A DNA stretch of 64,000 nucleotides, from IMG/VR virus record IMGVR_UViG_3300020451_000152, positions 10,263 through 74,262 of that record, one strand, 5' to 3'. The notes below the pieces were generated by a model. That model ran no database searches, was not told the DNA's origin, and worked only from the letters and a program-made list of their open reading frames with translations. Position 1 is the first letter of the stretch, and each line of letters starts with the position of its first letter. Both the position numbers and the translations under genes were made by a program. Positions 8,865 to 58,681 of the stretch are shown in pieces. The stretch comes from a virus.

Positions 8865-11800
8865 TATGCTAGTGCTAACGCCCTTACATTTTTAATGATA
8901 GGTATCTCTGCTTGATTAGTACCATTCATCACAACCTTAATAATAAATCCTGTGAAAGGTGCTAAATCGTTAGCAGTGTACTGATACTCATTCCATCTAG
9001 ATTCAGGGTTAATAAACTTATCTGGATTACCGTCAGGACCAGGTAGAGTAAGTCTTACCTTATCTCCAAACCCATCTCCATCAGTGTCTACCAAATTAAA
9101 GTAACCTGGGAAGAGATCAAATGATTGATCAACTTCACTAGAATCACCTCTGATCAAACTATACATTACTCTGAAATCAACAGATGCAGGTCTAAAGGCA
9201 TCAAAGATAACCTTTAATGAAGTTGCAGGTTGTTTGATTTTAATAATCTTAGACATGTAATATGAAGTATGTAAATCTCCATAGATAACATTTGCTCTAG
9301 GATCAATTGAGTAATCTGCAATAGGTTTGTTAAGTCTATTAGATGAGAATAACATCTTAGCAGTATCAAGGCATAACATTGGAGAACTCCAGAAGTTACC
9401 ACCATTAGACATTGCGATTCTAGTTGTTAGAGATTTATTTCTAAACAAACCAGTTAATTTACTTAACTCATTAACTTCAGATGCAACTATTCTTGTAGTG
9501 TCAAGTTTAGTTTCTTCATTAAGACCAACAGGAATAAATCCAAGATCGGTGAATGAGGTCTCAGAACCATCTACACTAGTTCCACTAACAGTTCTAATGT
9601 TCACAGTAGCACTGTCAGAAGCACCAGGTGTAGTTATATCATACAATGGGGTTATTGTATCATACTGGATGTTTTTGGACGCATGAGCAGCGATACCGCC
9701 ACCAAAGACTTCCTCACTGAATGAGAGTTGAGGTACACTGATACCAGAGATATCAACTGACCTACCTTCTCTATCAACTTTAATCAATAAATCATCCATA
9801 TTTTTCTCTTGAGATTCTACATCATGTTCAGTATTAATCTTGGTTAGAGAAACTCCACCAAACTCATACTTTTTGATAATAGAACCAGACGCATGGTTGA
9901 TTGACTGGGTATTATTAATACCTCTTACAATACCACCAAGAGTATTGATACCAACGCTAGTATAAGATATAATTTCATTATTAATCAAAGCGTATGCAGT
10001 ATTTGCTGCACTAACTAATACTCCTTCAAATACATCGAATCCTGTACTATCTCCAATAGAAATATTGGTAGTAGTAGAATTGACTAAAGTAGATAATGTT
10101 GATGGTAAAGTATTAGGTTCAACGCCACTAATTGCAACTTTGTTTCCTATACCATACATTCCGTGATTGAAGTAAGATACTCTTGCATACTCACCAGTGT
10201 AAACACTACCAGTAGCATCATATCTGTATACATCAGTTCCAGAATCAACAACTGTACCTGCCTCGTGGAAGTAAGTTAAATCACCACCAGCAGTAAACTC
10301 TTCTGCTTGAATACCAGTTAGATATAGAGTGTCAAGACCTGCAATAGAATTGATACCGATTCTGACTCCAGAACCACTACCACTCATATCAGCAGTTACG
10401 ACACCAACCATATCACCAACTTTATATCCATTACCAGCAACAGCAATTGTTGCAGCAGTAATTGTTGAGTTACCAGCACCAACTGTTACTCCTAACTTAA
10501 GTCCAGTTCCTTCACCAGTAATGTTGAAGGTTCTAACTTGTGCTATAGGTGTTCCATAATTAGATCCATTTGTGGTAATACCTACAACACCAGTTGCAGG
10601 ACCACCAGCATCTTCAATAAATCCATAACGGTAACTAGCAGTGCTATCTCCTACCTTTCTACCCTGAGTGAATACTGTTCCAATCAATCCAGCATTTGTT
10701 GTGGTTGTAAAACCAACAGCAGCTTTCTTGGGAAGTGCTTCAATAGGATTTTTATTCAAGGCATTGAGTACACCATTATTAGGTCTAATTGGTGGGTTCT
10801 GGAATGTAACAACACCATCAGTAGAACTAAATTTCGCTCTATAAATCTTGAATGTCATGTCTTCAAATTGACATGGTGTCCATTCACGACCATTCTGTGA
10901 CTTGTAAAGTGAACCAACTAAGAATTGGTTTGAATACACTCTTCCAGAAGCATTAGGTAGAGATTGTGCGTTGATGGCAGTTTGACCCATTTCAGCAGTA
11001 AAGATCTCATATCCATTTGCAGGAGCACCAACAACTAAAGCATAAGGTTTAGCAGGTTCCAACCAAATTGGAGCAGGGAATGTAAATCTAGTCGCTACAG
11101 ATGCATCAGTTGATACTTCTATATTTGCAGGATCTATCGATACATGTGCATCAGGCGTAAGGATTTCTCCTTTAGGGATGCCAAGTTCCATTGCTCTAAT
11201 TTGAGCAAAAGGAGCACGAGTAGGATCGTTATCTTTAGTAGCAAAGAAAACATCAACAGCAGTTACATAAGCACCATGTTCATCCACAACGAATGATTGT
11301 GCAAGAGGATCATCATCCTGACTTTCTACAACAGGTACTGGTACAGGTACTGGTACGGGAACAGGATTTGGAACAGGAACAATAACGGGCACAGGCACAT
11401 TATTTGTAACCTCAACAATCTCCGTAACAGTATTATCAATTATTGTAGTGTTCTCAATAATGACAGGAGGTGGTGGTGGAGGTGGTGGGGGCGGTCTTCG
11501 GTTAATAAAGGTCAGTCCGTAATCACGCTGTACTGTCGTAGTTTCTAGAGTTGTAACTCTAACATCAGTTTGTATTAGTCTTGTAGTTCCTACAGCAGTG
11601 TATATTGCAGATGCATTTGATATTAAACTACTACCTCTCAATCCAGTTGAGTTTGTATTACTAGATGTAATTCTAAATTCTCTTTCACCTGATCTAACTC
11701 TTGCCAATGGTATGGGTGATGAATTAGGATTTCTAATCCATACAGCTCCGTAGAGATCTCCCCAAGCATCAGTTCTTAAATCAAGATCTGAAATAGTTGC

Positions 11801-39377: not shown

Positions 39378-39482
39378 GATAATAAAATGAAACAACAAAA
39401 AAACTGGACTTACACTCAATGATTGTTGGCAATGCTAACTCCTTTGCGAAGTCTAATTATGCCCCATTGGATGCCAGAAGAG

Positions 39483-44926: not shown

Positions 44927-46099
44927 TTATCGGGTTACAGTTGATATTGCTGGTAACCCTTGATTGAAAATAGTATCAACAACTGCTTCAACTTTTCTTG
45001 CAGTGCTAATACCAACTTTTGAATAAACTGGTACACATACCATACCATAGACCTTATCAGCATTGCCTGTACGGATAACTCTACCTATTGTTTGACTGAT
45101 ACCTATGTAATCCATAGATCTCATAAACAACACTGCTTCAAGTCCATTGACATTGATACCTTCTGATAGTATGCTATGATGCAATACAACAAACTTTGTA
45201 TTGTCAGCACCCCATGTATTCAATGTTTTAAAGAATACATCACGAGATACTTTCTTACCATTGATGACTGCACCAGTTTTGGATGTAATATACATCCAAG
45301 AATAACCTCTATTTGATAACTCAATACAAAAATCTGATTGAGATACTAATTGAGTAATTTGTTTTGTAGATTTAGCACATATTAGTACTTTATCTTTTTC
45401 TAAATTATCAATTGCCTCTAGCATATTGTCAGATTCTACCTCTGCATAGATCTCATCTTTTTTCATTAGATCTCTTTTGTATACTTCAACTTTTGGTGGT
45501 AGAATGTAACCCTGCTCAACTAATTGAGGTGCTGGTACATTACAAATAACATCACCAAAAATATCAGTGTCATTCATACCTATTTTGAATGGACTCAAAC
45601 TATGCTTAGGTGTAGCAGTAAAGAAGTATGATCTCTTAGCATATATTGAAAGATGCTCAACTGCTTCAATAAAGTTTTTTTGTACACTATTGTGTGCTTC
45701 ATCAAAGTATATTGTATCAACTTCAATATCAAGTGATTCAGATACTCTATGCAATGAATGATATGTTGTGAATATCAATAGATTATTTCTGCTATTGTTA
45801 TACCAGTGCTCCAATTCATCAGTTTTTGTTGTACTATTATACTTTGTATCACCACTATGTACATGAATAACTTCTGCATCAATAAACTGTAGAAATTCTT
45901 CACATAATTGATGTGCTAATAGTATACGAGGTGCAACAACTACTACAGTATGTGCAAACTTCTCATTTCTAGCAAATAGTCTTTTAGTATCTTCAATCAT
46001 ACACATTGTTTTACCACCACCTGTAGGAATGATAACCTTACCTTTAGGTGTGTTTGACATTGAGTCTAGAGCGTCAATTTGATGTGGTCTTAGTTGCAT
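44927..46099 (-). CDS. SF2 DEAD/DEAH-box (ResIII-like) helicase
   Basis: Q-motif LRPHQ, Walker A PTGGGKT, DEAH, TAT, LSEGIN, QTIGRVIR. Start taken as MQLRPHQ. Confidence 0.9.
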   Translation of the reverse strand: MQLRPHQIDALDSMSNTPKGKVIIPTGGGKTMCMIEDTKRLFARNEKFAHTVVVVAPRILLAHQLCEEFLQFIDAEVIHVHSGDTKYNSTTKTDELEHWYNNSRNNLLIFTTYHSLHRVSESLDIEVDTIYFDEAHNSVQKNFIEAVEHLSIYAKRSYFFTATPKHSLSPFKIGMNDTDIFGDVICNVPAPQLVEQGYILPPKVEVYKRDLMKKDEIYAEVESDNMLEAIDNLEKDKVLICAKSTKQITQLVSQSDFCIELSNRGYSWMYITSKTGAVINGKKVSRDVFFKTLNTWGADNTKFVVLHHSILSEGINVNGLEAVLFMRSMDYIGISQTIGRVIRTGNADKVYGMVCVPVYSKVGISTARKVEAVVDTIFNQGLPAISTVTR

Positions 46100-46119
46100 A
46101 ATGAATTTCAATTACCTTA

Positions 46120-46176
46120 ATTATAGCATAAAAAAAGACCCCCGAAGGGGTCTTGTGACAGTTATTTGATTGCCAC
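46120..46176 (-). promoter_or_regulatory. Early promoter cassette 6: GTGGCAAT-N6-ACTGTCAC + 29 nt + TATAAT
   Basis: Box 46155-46176; -10 at 46120-46125. A terminator hairpin occupies the spacer. Confidence 0.8.
46130..46154 (-). terminator. Rho-independent terminator with UUCG tetraloop
   Basis: AAGACCCC-TTCG-GGGGTCTT-TTTTT on the minus strand, just after the stop at 46162. Confidence 0.9.
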
Positions 46177-46461
46177 TCTCTCTGGAACTTTAACATCTAG
46201 ATTTTGTAGGAAATTAACTACAAATGCTTCCAGATAGATCAAAGGGAGTATAACAAAATCAATACCTCTAAGTTTTGTGAATTTAGAGTAATCAACTGTT
46301 TTAACTTCTTCATTGACATTTAGTGTCAATGTTTCTGCTTTAACTTCTTCAGTCACAATTGGTTTAGCAACTGGAGTATTTAGAGTTTTAGTAACAGTTG
46401 TTTTACGAGTGCGTCTTTTGCGAGGAGTTGTAACTTTCTTCGCTGTAGATGCAGTTGGCAT
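46162..46461 (-). CDS. Small protein with an Arg/Lys-rich N-terminus and a hydrophobic C-terminal segment (99 aa)
   Basis: MPTASTAKKVTTPRKRRTRKTT...FVILPLIYLEAFVVNFL. Start revised to the ATG at 46461. Confidence 0.7.
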   Translation of the reverse strand: MPTASTAKKVTTPRKRRTRKTTVTKTLNTPVAKPIVTEEVKAETLTLNVNEEVKTVDYSKFTKLRGIDFVILPLIYLEAFVVNFLQNLDVKVPERVAIK

Positions 46462-46483
46462 AGAATAATAATGCAATGGATGG

Positions 46484-46840
46484 GCGAAACATTAAGGGTA
46501 ATGTAATTTTAATTCAACATCATGTCTCTACTTCTTGTTTGAGAGGAGTGGGGCAATGATCTGGGTTTCACCCAGTTGCCCAAATTTACCTACTGGGAAT
46601 CGCTTACACCTGTACCCCCAAACTTAATCGGGGCAGTAGAACCACATATCCAAATGGGACTTACAACTTCAAAACTGTCTTTTCAGATGTCCGAGGACAT
46701 CAGCAGTACTAGAGGTCTCCAAACATAAAGAGCAGTTATCCACAGCGTGATCAAAGATCATCTGAATTGTTGCTCACCCCTGCCTAGCGTTTGCCCATTC
46801 TCAAAACTGTTAGAGTAGTTGAACCCTTAACTGTTTCGCT
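46484..46840 (-). ncRNA. Putative large structured non-coding RNA (~357 nt)
   Basis: ORF-free and richer in GC than its flanks. The 5' GCGAAACAGTTAAGGGT pairs with the 3' ACCCTTAATGTTTCGC (16 bp, one bulge). At least 8 further nested stems are visible. The predicted TSS of the promoter at 46846-46903 coincides with the 5' end of the closing stem. Confidence 0.75.
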
Positions 46841-46845
46841 CTTCT

Positions 46846-46903
46846 ATTATAACGCATCTAGGTCACTGTGCAATCGTCGTTGTGACACTTTATCAACTGG
46901 TTC
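46846..46903 (-). promoter_or_regulatory. Early promoter cassette 7: GAACCAGT-N6-AGTGTCAC + 30 nt + TATAAT (drives the RNA)
   Basis: Box 46882-46903; -10 at 46846-46851. Confidence 0.8.
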
Positions 46904-47023
46904 TTCAATGAATGTTCTTTCTTTACCATCTTCAGTGAGAATAACCCTAGATCTTTCTGTACTACCTGCCTCCCTTACATATATTGTAATGCCACCATCG
47001 GGTGATTCATAAATTTTTGGCAT
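46847..47023 (-). CDS. Small hypothetical protein (58 aa)
   Basis: Manual translation MPKIYESPDGGITIYVREAGSTERSRVILTEDGKERTFIEEPVDKVSQRRLHSDLDAL. The IYESPDGG.T.Y.R motif is common in marine phages. TAATG overlap. Confidence 0.65.
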   Translation of the reverse strand: MPKIYESPDGGITIYVREAGSTERSRVILTEDGKERTFIEEPVDKVSQRRLHSDLDAL

Positions 47024-47279: not shown

Positions 47280-47996
47280 TTATTTGTTGTAATTAATATT
47301 GTAGATATGGAACATCATACCATGATAACCAGAATTATACTTTTTACCACTACCTTTCATTTGTAGATGAAATAGTTTTCTACCATCCTCTAATCTAAAC
47401 TCTAGTGTAGTATTATTTAATGTCCATCTACCCTTCTCAACTTGTTTCTCCATCATATTTACTGCTACCATCCTGAGTAAATCAGATCCTTTAGTATGCC
47501 ATATAATAGTATCAACTGCATCACCTTCAAATCCTCTTCTAACAATAACATCAAATATTGAACACTTGTTTTTATTCATCCATGTTACAAATGAACTGCA
47601 AACTTTCTTCTCTATATTATTTTTATACACCCTATTTTGATGTATCTCTTTTTCACTAAGATTTAAATCAGGATGTCTCTCTTGTACAATAGATTTTAAT
47701 TCTGGATTAGGATAACCAAAGAACATTCTAAGGAATGACTCACTATGTCCTTTAATCTTAAAGTGTTTGATAAACTTCTCAGTTGATAGTAATGCTACTT
47801 GAGTATGATTCTTTGATATACTCTTGATAGAATATTTTCTCTTACTAGTCTCTTCATACATATCTACCTTAGTTTGTGGTCTCCCATCAACTTTATGCTC
47901 ACCACCAAATAATTGGTCGAATAGAGCAGCAAGTTTATGTTCAAACTCATGCCCTGCTTTCTTTGCTTTTTTACCAGCAGTTATAGATGCAGTCAT
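47280..47996 (-). CDS. Putative PD-(D/E)XK type II restriction-like endonuclease (MspI/HinP1I-like)
   Basis: AKKAGHEFE...TKVD...YSIK catalytic-type pattern and a C-terminal LQMKGSG resembling the QRKGG motif of HinP1I/MspI. Start revised to MTASIT because the tracked ATG lies inside the -10 box. Confidence 0.55.
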   Translation of the reverse strand: MTASITAGKKAKKAGHEFEHKLAALFDQLFGGEHKVDGRPQTKVDMYEETSKRKYSIKSISKNHTQVALLSTEKFIKHFKIKGHSESFLRMFFGYPNPELKSIVQERHPDLNLSEKEIHQNRVYKNNIEKKVCSSFVTWMNKNKCSIFDVIVRRGFEGDAVDTIIWHTKGSDLLRMVAVNMMEKQVEKGRWTLNNTTLEFRLEDGRKLFHLQMKGSGKKYNSGYHGMMFHIYNINYNK

Positions 47997-48018
47997 TTCA
48001 GATCGTTTAGGTATCTTC

Positions 48019-48076
48019 ATTATATTCTATTAGTATTGAATAAACAATGGATGTGTGACAGTTATTTGATTGACCT
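48019..48076 (-). promoter_or_regulatory. Early promoter cassette 8: AGGTCAAT-N6-ACTGTCAC + 30 nt + TATAAT
   Basis: Box 48055-48076; -10 at 48019-48024. Confidence 0.8.
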
Positions 48077-55912: not shown

Positions 55913-58681
55913 TCAGGATAGTGTTCCTAATGAGATGGATCCGACTCCTATTACATTTAGTTTAGCAGTAGTACCATCAATAATAAATTCAACTCCAGTC
56001 GTAGCACTACCTACTAATGATCTCCATATACTATCAGATCCGTAAATCTGAAGTTGATTTGTTTGTTGGAAATAACACTGGTTAGAAGTACCCCAACCTG
56101 TAGTAAAGTTTGGTGGATTAACAGGTGATACACCACCACCTCCAGGTAAAGTATCTCTGTACTTTTCAAAACTACCTGATATTTGTTGGTCAATCACTCT
56201 TCCTTTAAATCCTCTTTCCATGAAGAAATCAAATCCAGGATCAGTTGCAAGACCAACAGGATCACCGTCTTCAAATCTTACAGTAAATCTTTTATTAGCA
56301 CCATCATACCACATGCTACCTGCAAAGTCACCATCAGCAACATCAACAACAGCAGGGTTATCTGGTATGCCACCACCAGGAGTATAATTTCTTGGTAAGA
56401 TAAATGCCTCTCCAGCATATCTCATATCTAACGAACCACCTGGATCACCACTGTTAATACCAATCCTACATGTAGTTGTACCAGCAACACCAACAGTTCC
56501 ACCTACCCCTGTATGATTATTCCAGAATGTTGTAGGTTTATAGACTTCAAATGTACCACCATTATTAGAAGAATTTATAGTTGTCGTAGTTCCGATACCT
56601 ACGCTACCCTCAAATATTGCTTGAGAGTTTGATAATACACCTGCATCTCTAATTAAACCAACATGTAATAAATCAGTTGCAGTTCTTTGACCTGAAGTGG
56701 ATCCAATACCTATACCCTTACCACCACTACCATCTGTTTGTACAAATATCTCAGCACCATTACCAATTTGTAAACCTTGACTAACTGTTGTTGTTATACC
56801 TGAAGCACCAATACCCATGCCCAAGTAACTAGCAAACATTCTTGTGTCTGTACCGTCACCAATTACTAAATTATTAACTGTGGTAACACCTTGGTAGGCA
56901 ATCAAGTTGTTAGCAGTAATTAAACCTGTTAATCCATTCAGATTTACATTTCCTACATCAACTGTTCCAATACCACTAACAGTTAAGTTTCCACCAACAT
57001 CAAGAGAATTTGTTGTAATAATACCTGCAATCTTAGCGTTGCTAACTTCAACCTTACTACCAAAGAATCCATCAGTACATGATGAATATCCAGATGCAGT
57101 AATATCTGCAATACCTCTCAATGATCCTGAGAATGTAGCACCACCAGCAACTACAATACCACCGCCAACATCTACTATTCCACCGTTAGCATTAATTCTA
57201 CCAACTGTAAGAGCAGCACCAGGTAGATTAATACCACCCAATCCCAAACTACCACCAGTAGTGAGATTTATATCTCCACCAAGTGTAGCACCACCACCTA
57301 CAACTAATCCACCACCTGTTCCAGTAAGACCACCATTAGCTACGACTCCACCACCTGTAAATATTCCTGATCCACTTGATATGATAGATCCACATGTAAA
57401 TGCACCACCTACAGTCATACCTTGAGCAGTATTCAACTCATCACAAGTTATATCTCCATCAAATATCATGTCACCTGCACCAGTGACAGTACCAGTTAAT
57501 GAAGTGATACCAGCAACAGATAATCCAGCACCAACATTTATTGTATTAACATCAATATCTCCACCAATATCCAAATTACCAACAATACTTCCACCAATAG
57601 CAATACTACCACTAAGAATTATATCTCCATCAGATACTCTAACAGTACCAATAAATCCTGCTGCCTGTCCTGAAGCTGATGATGTTGCACCAACACCTAA
57701 AAACTCACCTACCAATAAATCCTGTCCTATTGTACTGATACCATTACCATTAATAAAGGCAGGTGCTAATCCTGTTGTTCGTAATTCTTCTACCTGAATG
57801 GAAGGATCACCCAATAAACTATATGCAGTTTGAGCACCAACAGCAGTAGATGCTGTTCCACTAAATGTTGTAGCAGTAATTATTCCTGCCTCTGCAACCA
57901 CTCCACCACTAATTTTTAATGTGCTGAAACTTGTAATACCTGTAAATGTTCCTCCTACACCAGTAATATAATTAACATCAATATTAGGCGTGTCAGTTAA
58001 ACCAGCAGCAACATTTGCTAATGCTGCGTTAGTAACCGTACCAATAAATTGAGGTGCTTCTATCTGTGAAGTTGCAGTGATAGTAGAGAATGTACCAACA
58101 TCACCAACAATAGTGCCTTGACCACTTCCAGTAACATTGACAGCAGTTATATTCTTTCCTACTAATCCTTCAAATGTTCCAACGCCACTGTTGGCATCCA
58201 TGTATATCTCATAACCTACAGCAAAATCTGATCCTCCCCTTGGAATCTCTGTTCCTATACCTACATCTTTAAGGGCATATATCGTATTACCACTACCAGG
58301 ATTATTCCATACAGATGCTGGTAGTCCTGTTAATCCTGCACCATTACCACTAAATGACTGTGCAACCACATTACCATCAGCATCAACAGTAAATCCAGTA
58401 GTTCCAATACCAACTTGAAATACTGCTTCAGGAACTGTAGTTCCAATACCCACTGAGGATCCAACAGAAACATTTAAGTTATCTCTTATACTTGTCACAC
58501 CAGTGACAGTTAAATCATGCAACTCTGAGTGATTATCAACAATTACATTACCTCGAACATCGAGTTGTTGCCTGGGTATGGTACTACCAATACCCACCAG
58601 ACCATTATTAGATATCAGGTCATCAGTATCAACCTGAATACCATCTCTAAAATTGATGACAGTTTTATAATTGCTAGGCAT
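55913..58681 (-). CDS. Glycine-rich tail fibre protein
   Basis: Repeated VGIG(T/S)T.P...L.V.G motifs, F.G.G..LT, Gly-rich beta-helix-like centre. Late promoter ATAAATA upstream. Confidence 0.75.
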   Translation of the reverse strand: MPSNYKTVINFRDGIQVDTDDLISNNGLVGIGSTIPRQQLDVRGNVIVDNHSELHDLTVTGVTSIRDNLNVSVGSSVGIGTTVPEAVFQVGIGTTGFTVDADGNVVAQSFSGNGAGLTGLPASVWNNPGSGNTIYALKDVGIGTEIPRGGSDFAVGYEIYMDANSGVGTFEGLVGKNITAVNVTGSGQGTIVGDVGTFSTITATSQIEAPQFIGTVTNAALANVAAGLTDTPNIDVNYITGVGGTFTGITSFSTLKISGGVVAEAGIITATTFSGTASTAVGAQTAYSLLGDPSIQVEELRTTGLAPAFINGNGISTIGQDLLVGEFLGVGATSSASGQAAGFIGTVRVSDGDIILSGSIAIGGSIVGNLDIGGDIDVNTINVGAGLSVAGITSLTGTVTGAGDMIFDGDITCDELNTAQGMTVGGAFTCGSIISSGSGIFTGGGVVANGGLTGTGGGLVVGGGATLGGDINLTTGGSLGLGGINLPGAALTVGRINANGGIVDVGGGIVVAGGATFSGSLRGIADITASGYSSCTDGFFGSKVEVSNAKIAGIITTNSLDVGGNLTVSGIGTVDVGNVNLNGLTGLITANNLIAYQGVTTVNNLVIGDGTDTRMFASYLGMGIGASGITTTVSQGLQIGNGAEIFVQTDGSGGKGIGIGSTSGQRTATDLLHVGLIRDAGVLSNSQAIFEGSVGIGTTTTINSSNNGGTFEVYKPTTFWNNHTGVGGTVGVAGTTTCRIGINSGDPGGSLDMRYAGEAFILPRNYTPGGGIPDNPAVVDVADGDFAGSMWYDGANKRFTVRFEDGDPVGLATDPGFDFFMERGFKGRVIDQQISGSFEKYRDTLPGGGGVSPVNPPNFTTGWGTSNQCYFQQTNQLQIYGSDSIWRSLVGSATTGVEFIIDGTTAKLNVIGVGSISLGTLS

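Follow-up and report, generated by a model that had tools for sequence, protein, structure and literature searches.

What does a cyanophage place between an early promoter and the first gene behind it when the intervening 357 nt fold into a dense set of stems? The question arises within positions 46120-46903 of the window, the 64,000-nt stretch of IMG/VR virus record IMGVR_UViG_3300020451_000152 analyzed here (positions 10,263 to 74,262 of that record). All features of the locus are read on the minus strand, and coordinates are given on the plus strand of the window. The original prediction described a phage-encoded, promoter-driven, multi-stem noncoding RNA, self-contained and served by a dedicated RNA-binding protein. 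Covarying homologues bear out the RNA itself, which forms the folded 5′ leader of an early message in a P-SSM2-like, T4-type cyanophage. It is not, however, a single unit of 357 nt. It consists of three nested modules that occur separately or recombined elsewhere: a stalk, W, and two cargo domains, module B and the core, which are nested in the tip of W. The three modules evolve and move independently.

Architecture of the Leader

The promoter hexamer, the stalk, and its two cargo domains are arranged as follows.

46846-46851, minus strand: TATAAT, −10 hexamer of an early-type promoter (read from the sequence), overlapping the stop codon of an upstream 58-aa open reading frame (ORF)
46806-46839, minus strand: 5′ arm of stalk W, with one strand each of the closing helix, helix 2, and helix 3
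46484-46537, minus strand: 3′ arm of stalk W, with the partner strands of helix 3, an ACAUGAU loop, helix 2, and the closing helix
46824-46839 with 46484-46498/9, minus strand: closing helix (sequence and fold)
46818-46823 with 46513-46518, minus strand: helix 2, UUCAAC/GUUGAA (sequence)
46811-46815 with 46526-46530, minus strand: helix 3, CUCUA/UAGAG (sequence)
46799-46805 with 46538-46544, minus strand: UUUGAGA/UCUCAAA helix closing the cargo, here module B plus core (sequence)
46655-46797, minus strand: module B, a GGCA...UGUAAGUCC module whose sub-hairpin at 46686-46701 varies (23 distinct copies aligned)
46545-46650, minus strand: core domain, about 110 nt (covariance model R1, 126.8 bits, E = 1e-30 in the window)

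Every stem drawn in the original prediction is present in the sequence, and the main ones are retained through compensatory changes in related phages. Besides the helices listed above, these stems include GAGCA/UGCUC enclosing a UGAUC-UUU-GAUCA hairpin, the hairpin GAUGUC-CUCG-GACAUC, CUACUG/CAGUAG enclosing CCCC/GGGGG, and a GGGCA...UGCCC hairpin at 46551-46581. The minimum-energy fold, at −106.9 kcal/mol, reproduces the closing stem and the nesting. Its advantage over shuffled sequences is modest (z = −2.04, with 2 of 100 shuffles equally good), and energy alone is insufficient to establish a real folded RNA. That case is carried by covariation: among the homologues, the core, helix 2 of the stalk, and module B all show compensatory changes. 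The region had also been described as free of ORFs. ORFs of 30-73 aa do overlap it, but its covarying helices and length-variable hairpins speak against a coding role.

The RNAs run in the same direction as the genes on both sides, and their G-U pairs are strand-specific, with UG in 74 and GU in all of the 93 distinct core copies. The strand-specific G-U pairs and the shared orientation point to RNA rather than DNA and assign the structure to the transcript of the gene strand. The string ACAGUUUUGA occurs twice, as had been claimed. This pair was considered as a target-site duplication or scar and rejected, given that the first lies in the stalk and the second is a constant part of module B wherever B occurs.

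The Core Domain

The elements of the core are listed below.

46643-46645 (GUG) with 46548-46550 (CAC), minus strand: P1b
46634-46640 with 46589-46595, minus strand: P3
46630-46633 with 46616-46619, minus strand: P4
46551-46581, minus strand: P5 hairpin with loop GUGAAAC
46596-46610, minus strand: 15-nt bulge hairpin GGUGUAAGCGAUUCC, constant in all copies seen
Minus strand: junction J3/5, UAAAUUU

A closing helix with an AUAU-type internal loop leads into a three-way junction of P1b, P3, and P5, and P3 bears a second junction that holds P4 and the small bulge hairpin. In blastn searches of phage records, Prochlorococcus phages P-SSM2 and P-SSM5 match a 112-nt piece (46539-46650) with 91% identity, the matches falling in a 366-nt unannotated gap; single-virus amplified genomes also contain matches. 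A 16-mer of the core matches more than 117 IMG/VR contigs. The covariance model was built on 26 copies, and 97 copies, 93 of them distinct, were aligned. It detects one copy each in the window, the complete P-SSM2 genome (at 56699-56826), and two long viral records.

The proposed pairing is strongly supported by the 93 distinct copies. Standard pairs occupy 95.5% of pair cells, compared with 40-57% when the partners are slid by 1-3 columns, and both-sided changes are found in 19 of the 32 pairs (332 cells). P3, for example, appears as CUACUG/CAGUAG, CCAUAG/CUAUGG, CCUAUG/CAUAGG, and CUCUAG/CUAGAG. P4 accepts inserts, and the spacing from GGUU to the invariant 16-mer accordingly ranges from 28 to 245 nt.

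While these helices covary, the junction UAAAUUU, the loop GUGAAAC, and the bulge hairpin GGUGUAAGCGAUUCC stay fixed. The hairpin is also constant in copies fetched via the other modules, 18 of 19 of which carry the exact 16-mer, or via a pattern of J3/5 and the P5 loop. The only change near it converts the next base from C to U, and the P3 partner is altered to match. Such constancy points to a specific tertiary fold or a binding surface and away from a simple clamp. Because contigs often break off at the core, a multicopy repeat was considered. The idea was rejected, P-SSM2 and each of three long records having a single copy; the breaks more likely stem from assembly across strains that share the conserved core.

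The Stalk and Its Interchangeable Cargo

The 3′ arm of W carries a 13-nt bulge, UUAAAAUUACAUUA, together with the conserved ACAUGAU loop, and its helices switch sequence on both strands. The closing helix alternates between GCGAAAC/GUUUCGC and GAGAAAC/GUUUCUC and between UUAAGGG/CCCUUAA and UUGAGGG/CCCUCAA, and the inner helices between UUCAAC/GUUGAA and UUCAUC/GAUGAA and between CUCUA/UAGAG and CUCUG/CAGAG. Across 51 distinct copies, helix 2 uses 19 different combinations of strands and still keeps 5.9 of its 6 positions paired. The 17-nt anchor AAGAAGYAGAGACAUGA is found in 85 IMG/VR contigs; about 56 among the matches listed also have the 5′ arm of W.

What this stalk encloses varies from phage to phage. 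Its cargo is most often a 45-nt hairpin, with other hairpins also represented, and elsewhere it is a GGCA...AUAAGUCC module. At related loci L093, L282, and L297 the cargo is the core alone, closed by the equivalent of the UUUGAGA/UCUCAAA helix, and at L063 and L291 it is a core with a P4 insert. Module B is the sole cargo at L296, L319, L262, and L246, where it is closed by the same helix as the core. B plus core is found in this window only. One hairpin that is stalk cargo at L310 turns up at L047 and L109 inserted into the P4 loop of the core. One stalk type is found with at least six kinds of cargo.

Module B and Further RNA Modules

The alignment of 23 distinct copies of module B contains several compensatory changes. 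An 18-nt anchor of B occurs in 42 IMG/VR contigs, most of the new ones lacking a core within the fetched flanks. B usually stands alone or after the core, as at L080, L002, L018, and L056; here it precedes the core. Within the window, a second GGCA...UGUAAGUCC module, followed by U7, lies directly after a stop codon at 39404-39477 (minus strand), where it may be a large structured terminator or a 3′-end protector. Modules of this type also occur in the arrays found downstream of the core in other phages. There, a pseudoknot-like module with GGCGAUAGGAAAC is chained downstream of the core, as is a GUGGUAUG...GGUGAAGCACCUCUUGAGCAUACCAC module, and an GAGAUGGAUGUGCC...ACAUCC module lies 20-40 nt ahead of start codons. 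After the last module, several loci have a run of 5-8 U and next the upstream sequence of the following gene, as in a stand-alone RNA gene.

At least four of these conserved modules downstream of the core, for example at L014, L015, L080, and L093, show visible compensatory changes, and none has an Rfam match. The pseudoknot-like module, of the H type, switches between AACCC...GGUAGUUUC...GGGUU...GAAACUACC and UAGUC...GGUGGUUUC...GACUA...GAAACCACC, and a GUGGUAUG...CAUACCAC module tolerates inserts. T-arm-like strings (GGUUCAAUUCC in a hairpin) are present in additional noncoding modules at L006 and L051 (in both about 200 nt past the core), L076, and L034. ARAGORN calls no tRNA at these loci, and the modules are possibly tRNA-derived or tRNA-mimicking.

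Position at the Start of Early Transcripts

The predicted +1 had been placed on the first base of the closing helix, and the sequence agrees: the helix begins 6 nt past TATAAT, at 46839, and its partner strand (46484-46498) sits 340 nt downstream of 46824-46839. The same arrangement recurs in related phages. A TATAAT-like hexamer (at least 5 of 6 positions) ends 16-26 nt before GGUU in 67 of 122 distinct core contexts, with a peak at 19-21, which corresponds to 6-8 nt before the first paired base. Such a hexamer ends 20-45 nt before UACUCU in 35 of 49 stalk contexts, with subtype-specific peaks at 22, 28, and 31. The fixed distances indicate that these RNAs begin at about the +1 position of early-type transcripts. 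No terminator separates the RNA from the 99-aa ORF behind it. The RNA is therefore the 5′ leader of the mRNA for that ORF.

Behind these RNAs lie genes of many unrelated families, and the neighbors on either side often include a superfamily-2 helicase and a DNA methyltransferase. Contigs from four marine metatranscriptome runs overlie the RNA, which shows its presence in RNA libraries. In two runs of one study they end at 46481-46484, the foot of the stalk, which is a weak hint, and another contig spans into the ORF. No meaning is attached to a contig-free stretch at 46041-46275.

Two observations concern the sequences upstream of these promoters. A palindrome-like element, GUGUCAC...GUGAC, lies upstream of TATAAT at 46855-46900 (minus strand) and also at other early promoters of the window. 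In related phages it is replaced ahead of the stalk by a different conserved box, TAAAGTGTCC, preceded by a G run. These boxes are possible candidate sites for an early-promoter factor.

The Arginine-Rich Protein

The small gene that had been noted between the RNA and the UUCG terminator is present as described.

46162-46461, minus strand: 99-aa protein with an N-terminal arginine-rich motif (ARM), a T/K/P-rich linker, and a C-terminal hydrophobic helix

Its ORF starts 22 nt past the stalk. PRKRRTRK spans residues 13-20, the first 30 residues include nine K/R and no D/E, and across residues 67-85, a 19-residue segment, the Kyte-Doolittle hydropathy averages 2.0. Neither a Pfam family nor a PHROG matches the protein. 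Its 104 related clusters include none with an informative name or Pfam family, and the ARM head is fused to at least three different tails.

This protein had been cast as the dedicated partner of the RNA. The two are indeed associated: a listed RNA module lies within 450 nt upstream of the gene in 19 of 52 distinct protein-anchored contexts, compared with 2 of 49 downstream over the same span, so the gene is nonrandomly the first ORF behind structured leaders. Many of the remaining contexts have variant stalks or simpler hairpin leaders. The association is not obligate, however. The ARM gene follows only 6 of 42 stalks, and the complete genome of P-SSM2, which bears the core, has no homologue at E up to 1. 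The ARM gene is the favored first gene of such units and not their dedicated or obligate partner. The proposed analogy with OLE RNA and its protein OapA likewise finds no homology behind it and was based solely on an RNA adjoining a small hydrophobic protein. Rfam detects no OLE consensus RNA, and there is no obligate adjacent membrane protein of a recognized family.

Neighboring Features and Cassette Borders

The borders of the unit are marked by the following features.

46135-46154, minus strand: intrinsic terminator with an 8-bp stem, UUCG loop, and U7 (terminator scan)
46120-46128, minus strand: next promoter, TGCTATAAT, directly after the terminator
46154-46172 and 48054-48072, no strand assigned: 19-nt perfect direct repeat

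The two copies of the repeat are exactly 1900 bp apart. They cover the last codons, the stop codon, and the pre-terminator bases of two unrelated genes, the ARM gene and a halogenase gene 1.9 kb upstream, and they flank a five-part cassette of a nuclease-like gene, two small ORFs, the RNA, and the ARM gene. The pair looks like a recombination joint. A gene at 47280-48020 (minus strand) encodes a 246-aa product with no Pfam family, whose sole match is PHROG 25220, a PHROG without assigned function; it accompanies the RNA cassette at several loci (L027, L059, L066, L073, and L086).

Searches for Known Identities

None of the searches assigned these modules to a known family. At the gathering threshold, Rfam 15 yields no match in the 64-kb window or in 139 kb from 15 related loci; in agreement with the original prediction, neither tmRNA, RNase P, 6S RNA, introns, nor any other family is recognized. 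At E values up to 10, a search of 46100-46950 returns only noise outside the core. The models searched took in manA, wcaG, PhotoRC-II, OLE, GOLLD, ROOL, and the known ribozymes and riboswitches. ARAGORN finds no tRNA or tmRNA in the window or in 50 related loci. The RNAs are absent from Rfam 15 and have no description in the literature searched.

Three further candidate explanations were rejected. An origin in, or mimicry of, a host sequence is not supported: the exact 16-mer occurs by chance in many cellular genomes, and only 1 of 80 such loci fits the model, this being a 1.9-kb contig in an archaeal metagenome-assembled genome that is probably mis-binned. For an antisense target, P-SSM2 and three viral records were searched for another copy of the invariant 19-mer or for its complement, allowing up to 3 mismatches, and none was found; in 301 sampled cyanobacterial genomes, matches to the invariant 15-mer with at most 1 mismatch stay at the level of the controls. 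Short seed pairing is a possible antisense mode. A switch through re-pairing of GGGCA with UGCCC is not conserved, the pairing being lost where P5 covaries to GGACU or GGUCU.

Possible Functions of the Leader

The reading that we tentatively favor over its rivals is that W is a 5′-terminal stabilizing or processing stalk that presents stable, factor-binding RNA domains. W, which begins at +1 and has 20 or more quasi-continuous pairs, would shelter the 5′ end. With its conserved asymmetric loops, W resembles the RNase III stems that bracket rRNAs, the T7 R sites, and the processing stems of T7 and lambda early messages; it would present the cargo and perhaps free it upon double-strand cleavage. 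Nesting in a rigid stalk would lock the closing helix of the cargo, as expected more of a constitutively folded domain than of a switch. Early in infection the cargo domains would build up as stable RNAs. Each would use its invariant unpaired bases to bind a conserved host or phage factor, acting as a decoy, sponge, or recruiter. The arginine-rich protein would be one of several interchangeable first genes, able perhaps to bind the leader but not required by it. We count in favor of this model the covariation in all three modules, the strand-specific G-U pairs and shared orientation with the genes, the nesting of the core in a long rigid stalk, the unbiased invariance of unpaired bases, the single copy per genome, the −10 hexamer at a fixed distance, the interchangeable cargo, the P4 inserts, the U runs at module ends, and, weakly, the RNA-library contigs. 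Several points weigh against it. We infer, rather than observe, the discrete stable RNA, its cleavage, and its binding partner; helix length is the only basis for the RNase III idea; and the RNA-library contigs give neither ends nor levels and may contain DNA. With no terminator between RNA and ORF here, a purely cis role is equally compatible, and the extreme sequence constancy could partly mean a young, recently spread element. A bolder form of the model, which we hold more loosely, is that cyanophages possess a natural scaffold-and-cargo RNA system in which a 5′ stalk expresses interchangeable domains shuffled like gene cassettes, the core being a new class of functional RNA, either a ribozyme or a high-affinity aptamer for host RNA polymerase, the ribosome, an RNase, or a defense sensor.

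The chief rival, unlikely in our view, is a cis-acting antitermination leader of the lambda nut/N or HK022 put kind, acting with or without the ARM protein and allowing polymerase to read through early terminators. The RNA does start at an early promoter, with a strong terminator downstream, and the small protein just behind it in the same early transcript is N-like in its N-terminal arginine-rich motif, length of about 100 aa, and mostly low-complexity sequence. This order of promoter, RNA, and ARM gene recurs in the 19 of 52 contexts described above. P5 of the core is capped by a conserved GAAA-containing loop, and module B holds the boxA-like string UGCUCUUUA at 46726-46734 (minus strand), which is identical to the first nine bases of E. 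coli rrn boxA; CUCUUUR is retained in most B variants while its flanks vary. However, UGCUCUUUA is partly paired within a covarying helix of B. GCTCTTTA shows no enrichment in the window, with 3 occurrences against 1.9 expected, and is not repeated in the window's other gene-strand leaders. No canonical boxB was seen. The hydrophobic C-terminus of the protein is unlike N, and both the absence of an ARM homologue from core-bearing P-SSM2 and the scarcity of ARM genes behind stalks also argue against this reading. Less likely again is a plain mRNA stabilizer or punctuation element, a 5′-terminal and elsewhere a 3′-terminal structure whose sole task would be to guard phage messages against host RNase E, RNase J, and exonucleases, its modules conserved through recent recombinational spread. 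Stabilizers of the 5′ stem-loop type need helices that start within a few bases of the 5′ end, as these do relative to the predicted start; the related module and U7 directly after a stop codon at 39404-39477 and the many unrelated families of downstream genes also fit. Protection does not, however, need invariant unpaired bases, whereas here the stems vary and 15-20 unpaired bases are fixed, and a 110-nt three-way junction with inserts at one loop only exceeds a clamp.

The remaining alternatives concern the core itself or the nature of the element. One improbable alternative is that the core senses a general metabolic signal as a riboswitch aptamer and tunes early expression, even though its size, three-way junction, covarying stems, and invariant junction and bulge bases are aptamer-like and it lies in the 5′ untranslated region (UTR) directly ahead of ORFs in many phages. 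There is no conserved expression platform or exclusive pairing: what comes beyond P1 is very different from copy to copy, the genes behind have no relation to one another, the GGGCA/UGCCC alternative is lost in the P5 variants noted above, and in the window and elsewhere P1 is extended into a long stalk that would lock it. It is a shade more improbable that the core is a new catalytic RNA, self-cleaving or of another type, by which early transcripts are processed. Invariant unpaired bases, a compact multi-helix fold, and a variable peripheral insert would suit such an RNA, as would the phage setting and unrelated neighboring genes, which are shared by several small ribozyme classes; yet no Rfam ribozyme family matches, RNA contigs cross the core without a consistent break, and each genome has one copy. 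Least credible, and very improbable, is a DNA-level element such as a recombination hotspot or replication origin. The hypervariable region, adjoining helicase and methyltransferase genes, frequent contig breaks, and flanking 19-nt repeats could be read in this way, but on the opposite strand many of the conserved G-U pairs would turn into A-C mismatches, the orientation is fixed relative to genes and promoters, and the element is found in RNA libraries.

Significance and Comparison with Known Systems

T4-like cyanophages kill a large share of ocean Prochlorococcus and Synechococcus, and their early program is poorly known; to our knowledge, they lack the T4 regulators. The modules described here form an abundant and strongly constrained RNA family at the start of cyanophage early transcripts, and the core is present in a culturable isolate, P-SSM2, which makes it directly testable. 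If the domains bind host factors or catalyze reactions, they would constitute a new class of functional RNA. We know of no description of whole folded domains nested in, or swapped between, scaffolds among natural bacterial or phage RNAs; if the scaffold-and-cargo interpretation is true, it would provide a natural precedent for the RNA scaffolds of synthetic biology.

GOLLD, ROOL, and OLE are long multi-domain noncoding RNAs, some of them phage-borne and all with Rfam models. GOLLD, one half of which is variable, can embed other RNAs, and OLE functions with small membrane proteins. The RNA described here is shorter (110-360 nt), lies at the +1 position of an mRNA, has separately mobile modules, and matches no Rfam model; unlike the partners of OLE, its neighboring protein belongs to no recognized family and is dispensable. 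The lambda pL-nutL-N region and HK022 put are structured antitermination leaders proximal to early promoters. They share with this locus an early-promoter RNA followed by a protein of about 100 aa with an N-terminal ARM and by downstream terminators, but no boxA plus boxB unit is recognizable here, and P-SSM2 lacks the protein. RNase III stalks include the flanking stems of rRNA operons, T7 sites of the R1.1 type, and the lambda N-leader hairpin. Like W, they are irregular long-range helices of at least 20 bp with asymmetric internal loops, covarying stems, and little sequence conservation, and they enclose a functional RNA or lie at the ends of mRNAs. W differs in having conserved loops of its own (UA opposite ACAUGAY and the 13-nt bulge), and its cleavage is putative.

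Two systems are closer in setting. PeSLs combine a terminator stem-loop with an early promoter in the hyperplastic regions of T4-type phages and mediate modular gene shuffling (Arbiol et al. 2010, PMC2839356; Comeau et al. 2014, PMC4122927); the 2014 paper does not mention cyanophages (PMC4122927). The composite at 46120-46154, a terminator stem-loop followed by a sigma-70-like early promoter, is of this kind, and the cassette is flanked by the 19-nt repeats. This likeness concerns the borders of the cassette and not the RNA: PeSLs are simple hairpins and promoters at the DNA level, whereas the RNAs here are large, multi-helix structures with invariant loops. Shuffling of the PeSL type may be a route by which whole units move, but it does not account for the nesting of RNA modules inside one another. 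The manA (RF01745), wcaG (RF01761), and PhotoRC-II (RF01717) motifs are RNAs of T4-like cyanophages (Weinberg et al. 2010, PMC2864571). They too are structured, are nearly confined to marine metagenomes and T4-like cyanophages, occupy intergenic or 5′-UTR positions, and were found via covariation (PMC2864571). Their architecture is different, and none matches here even at E up to 10. The present RNA has no link to a gene function, and nesting or swapping of whole modules is not described for those motifs. Structured RNA motifs in cyanophage leaders are a kind already known; their nesting as scaffold and cargo is new.

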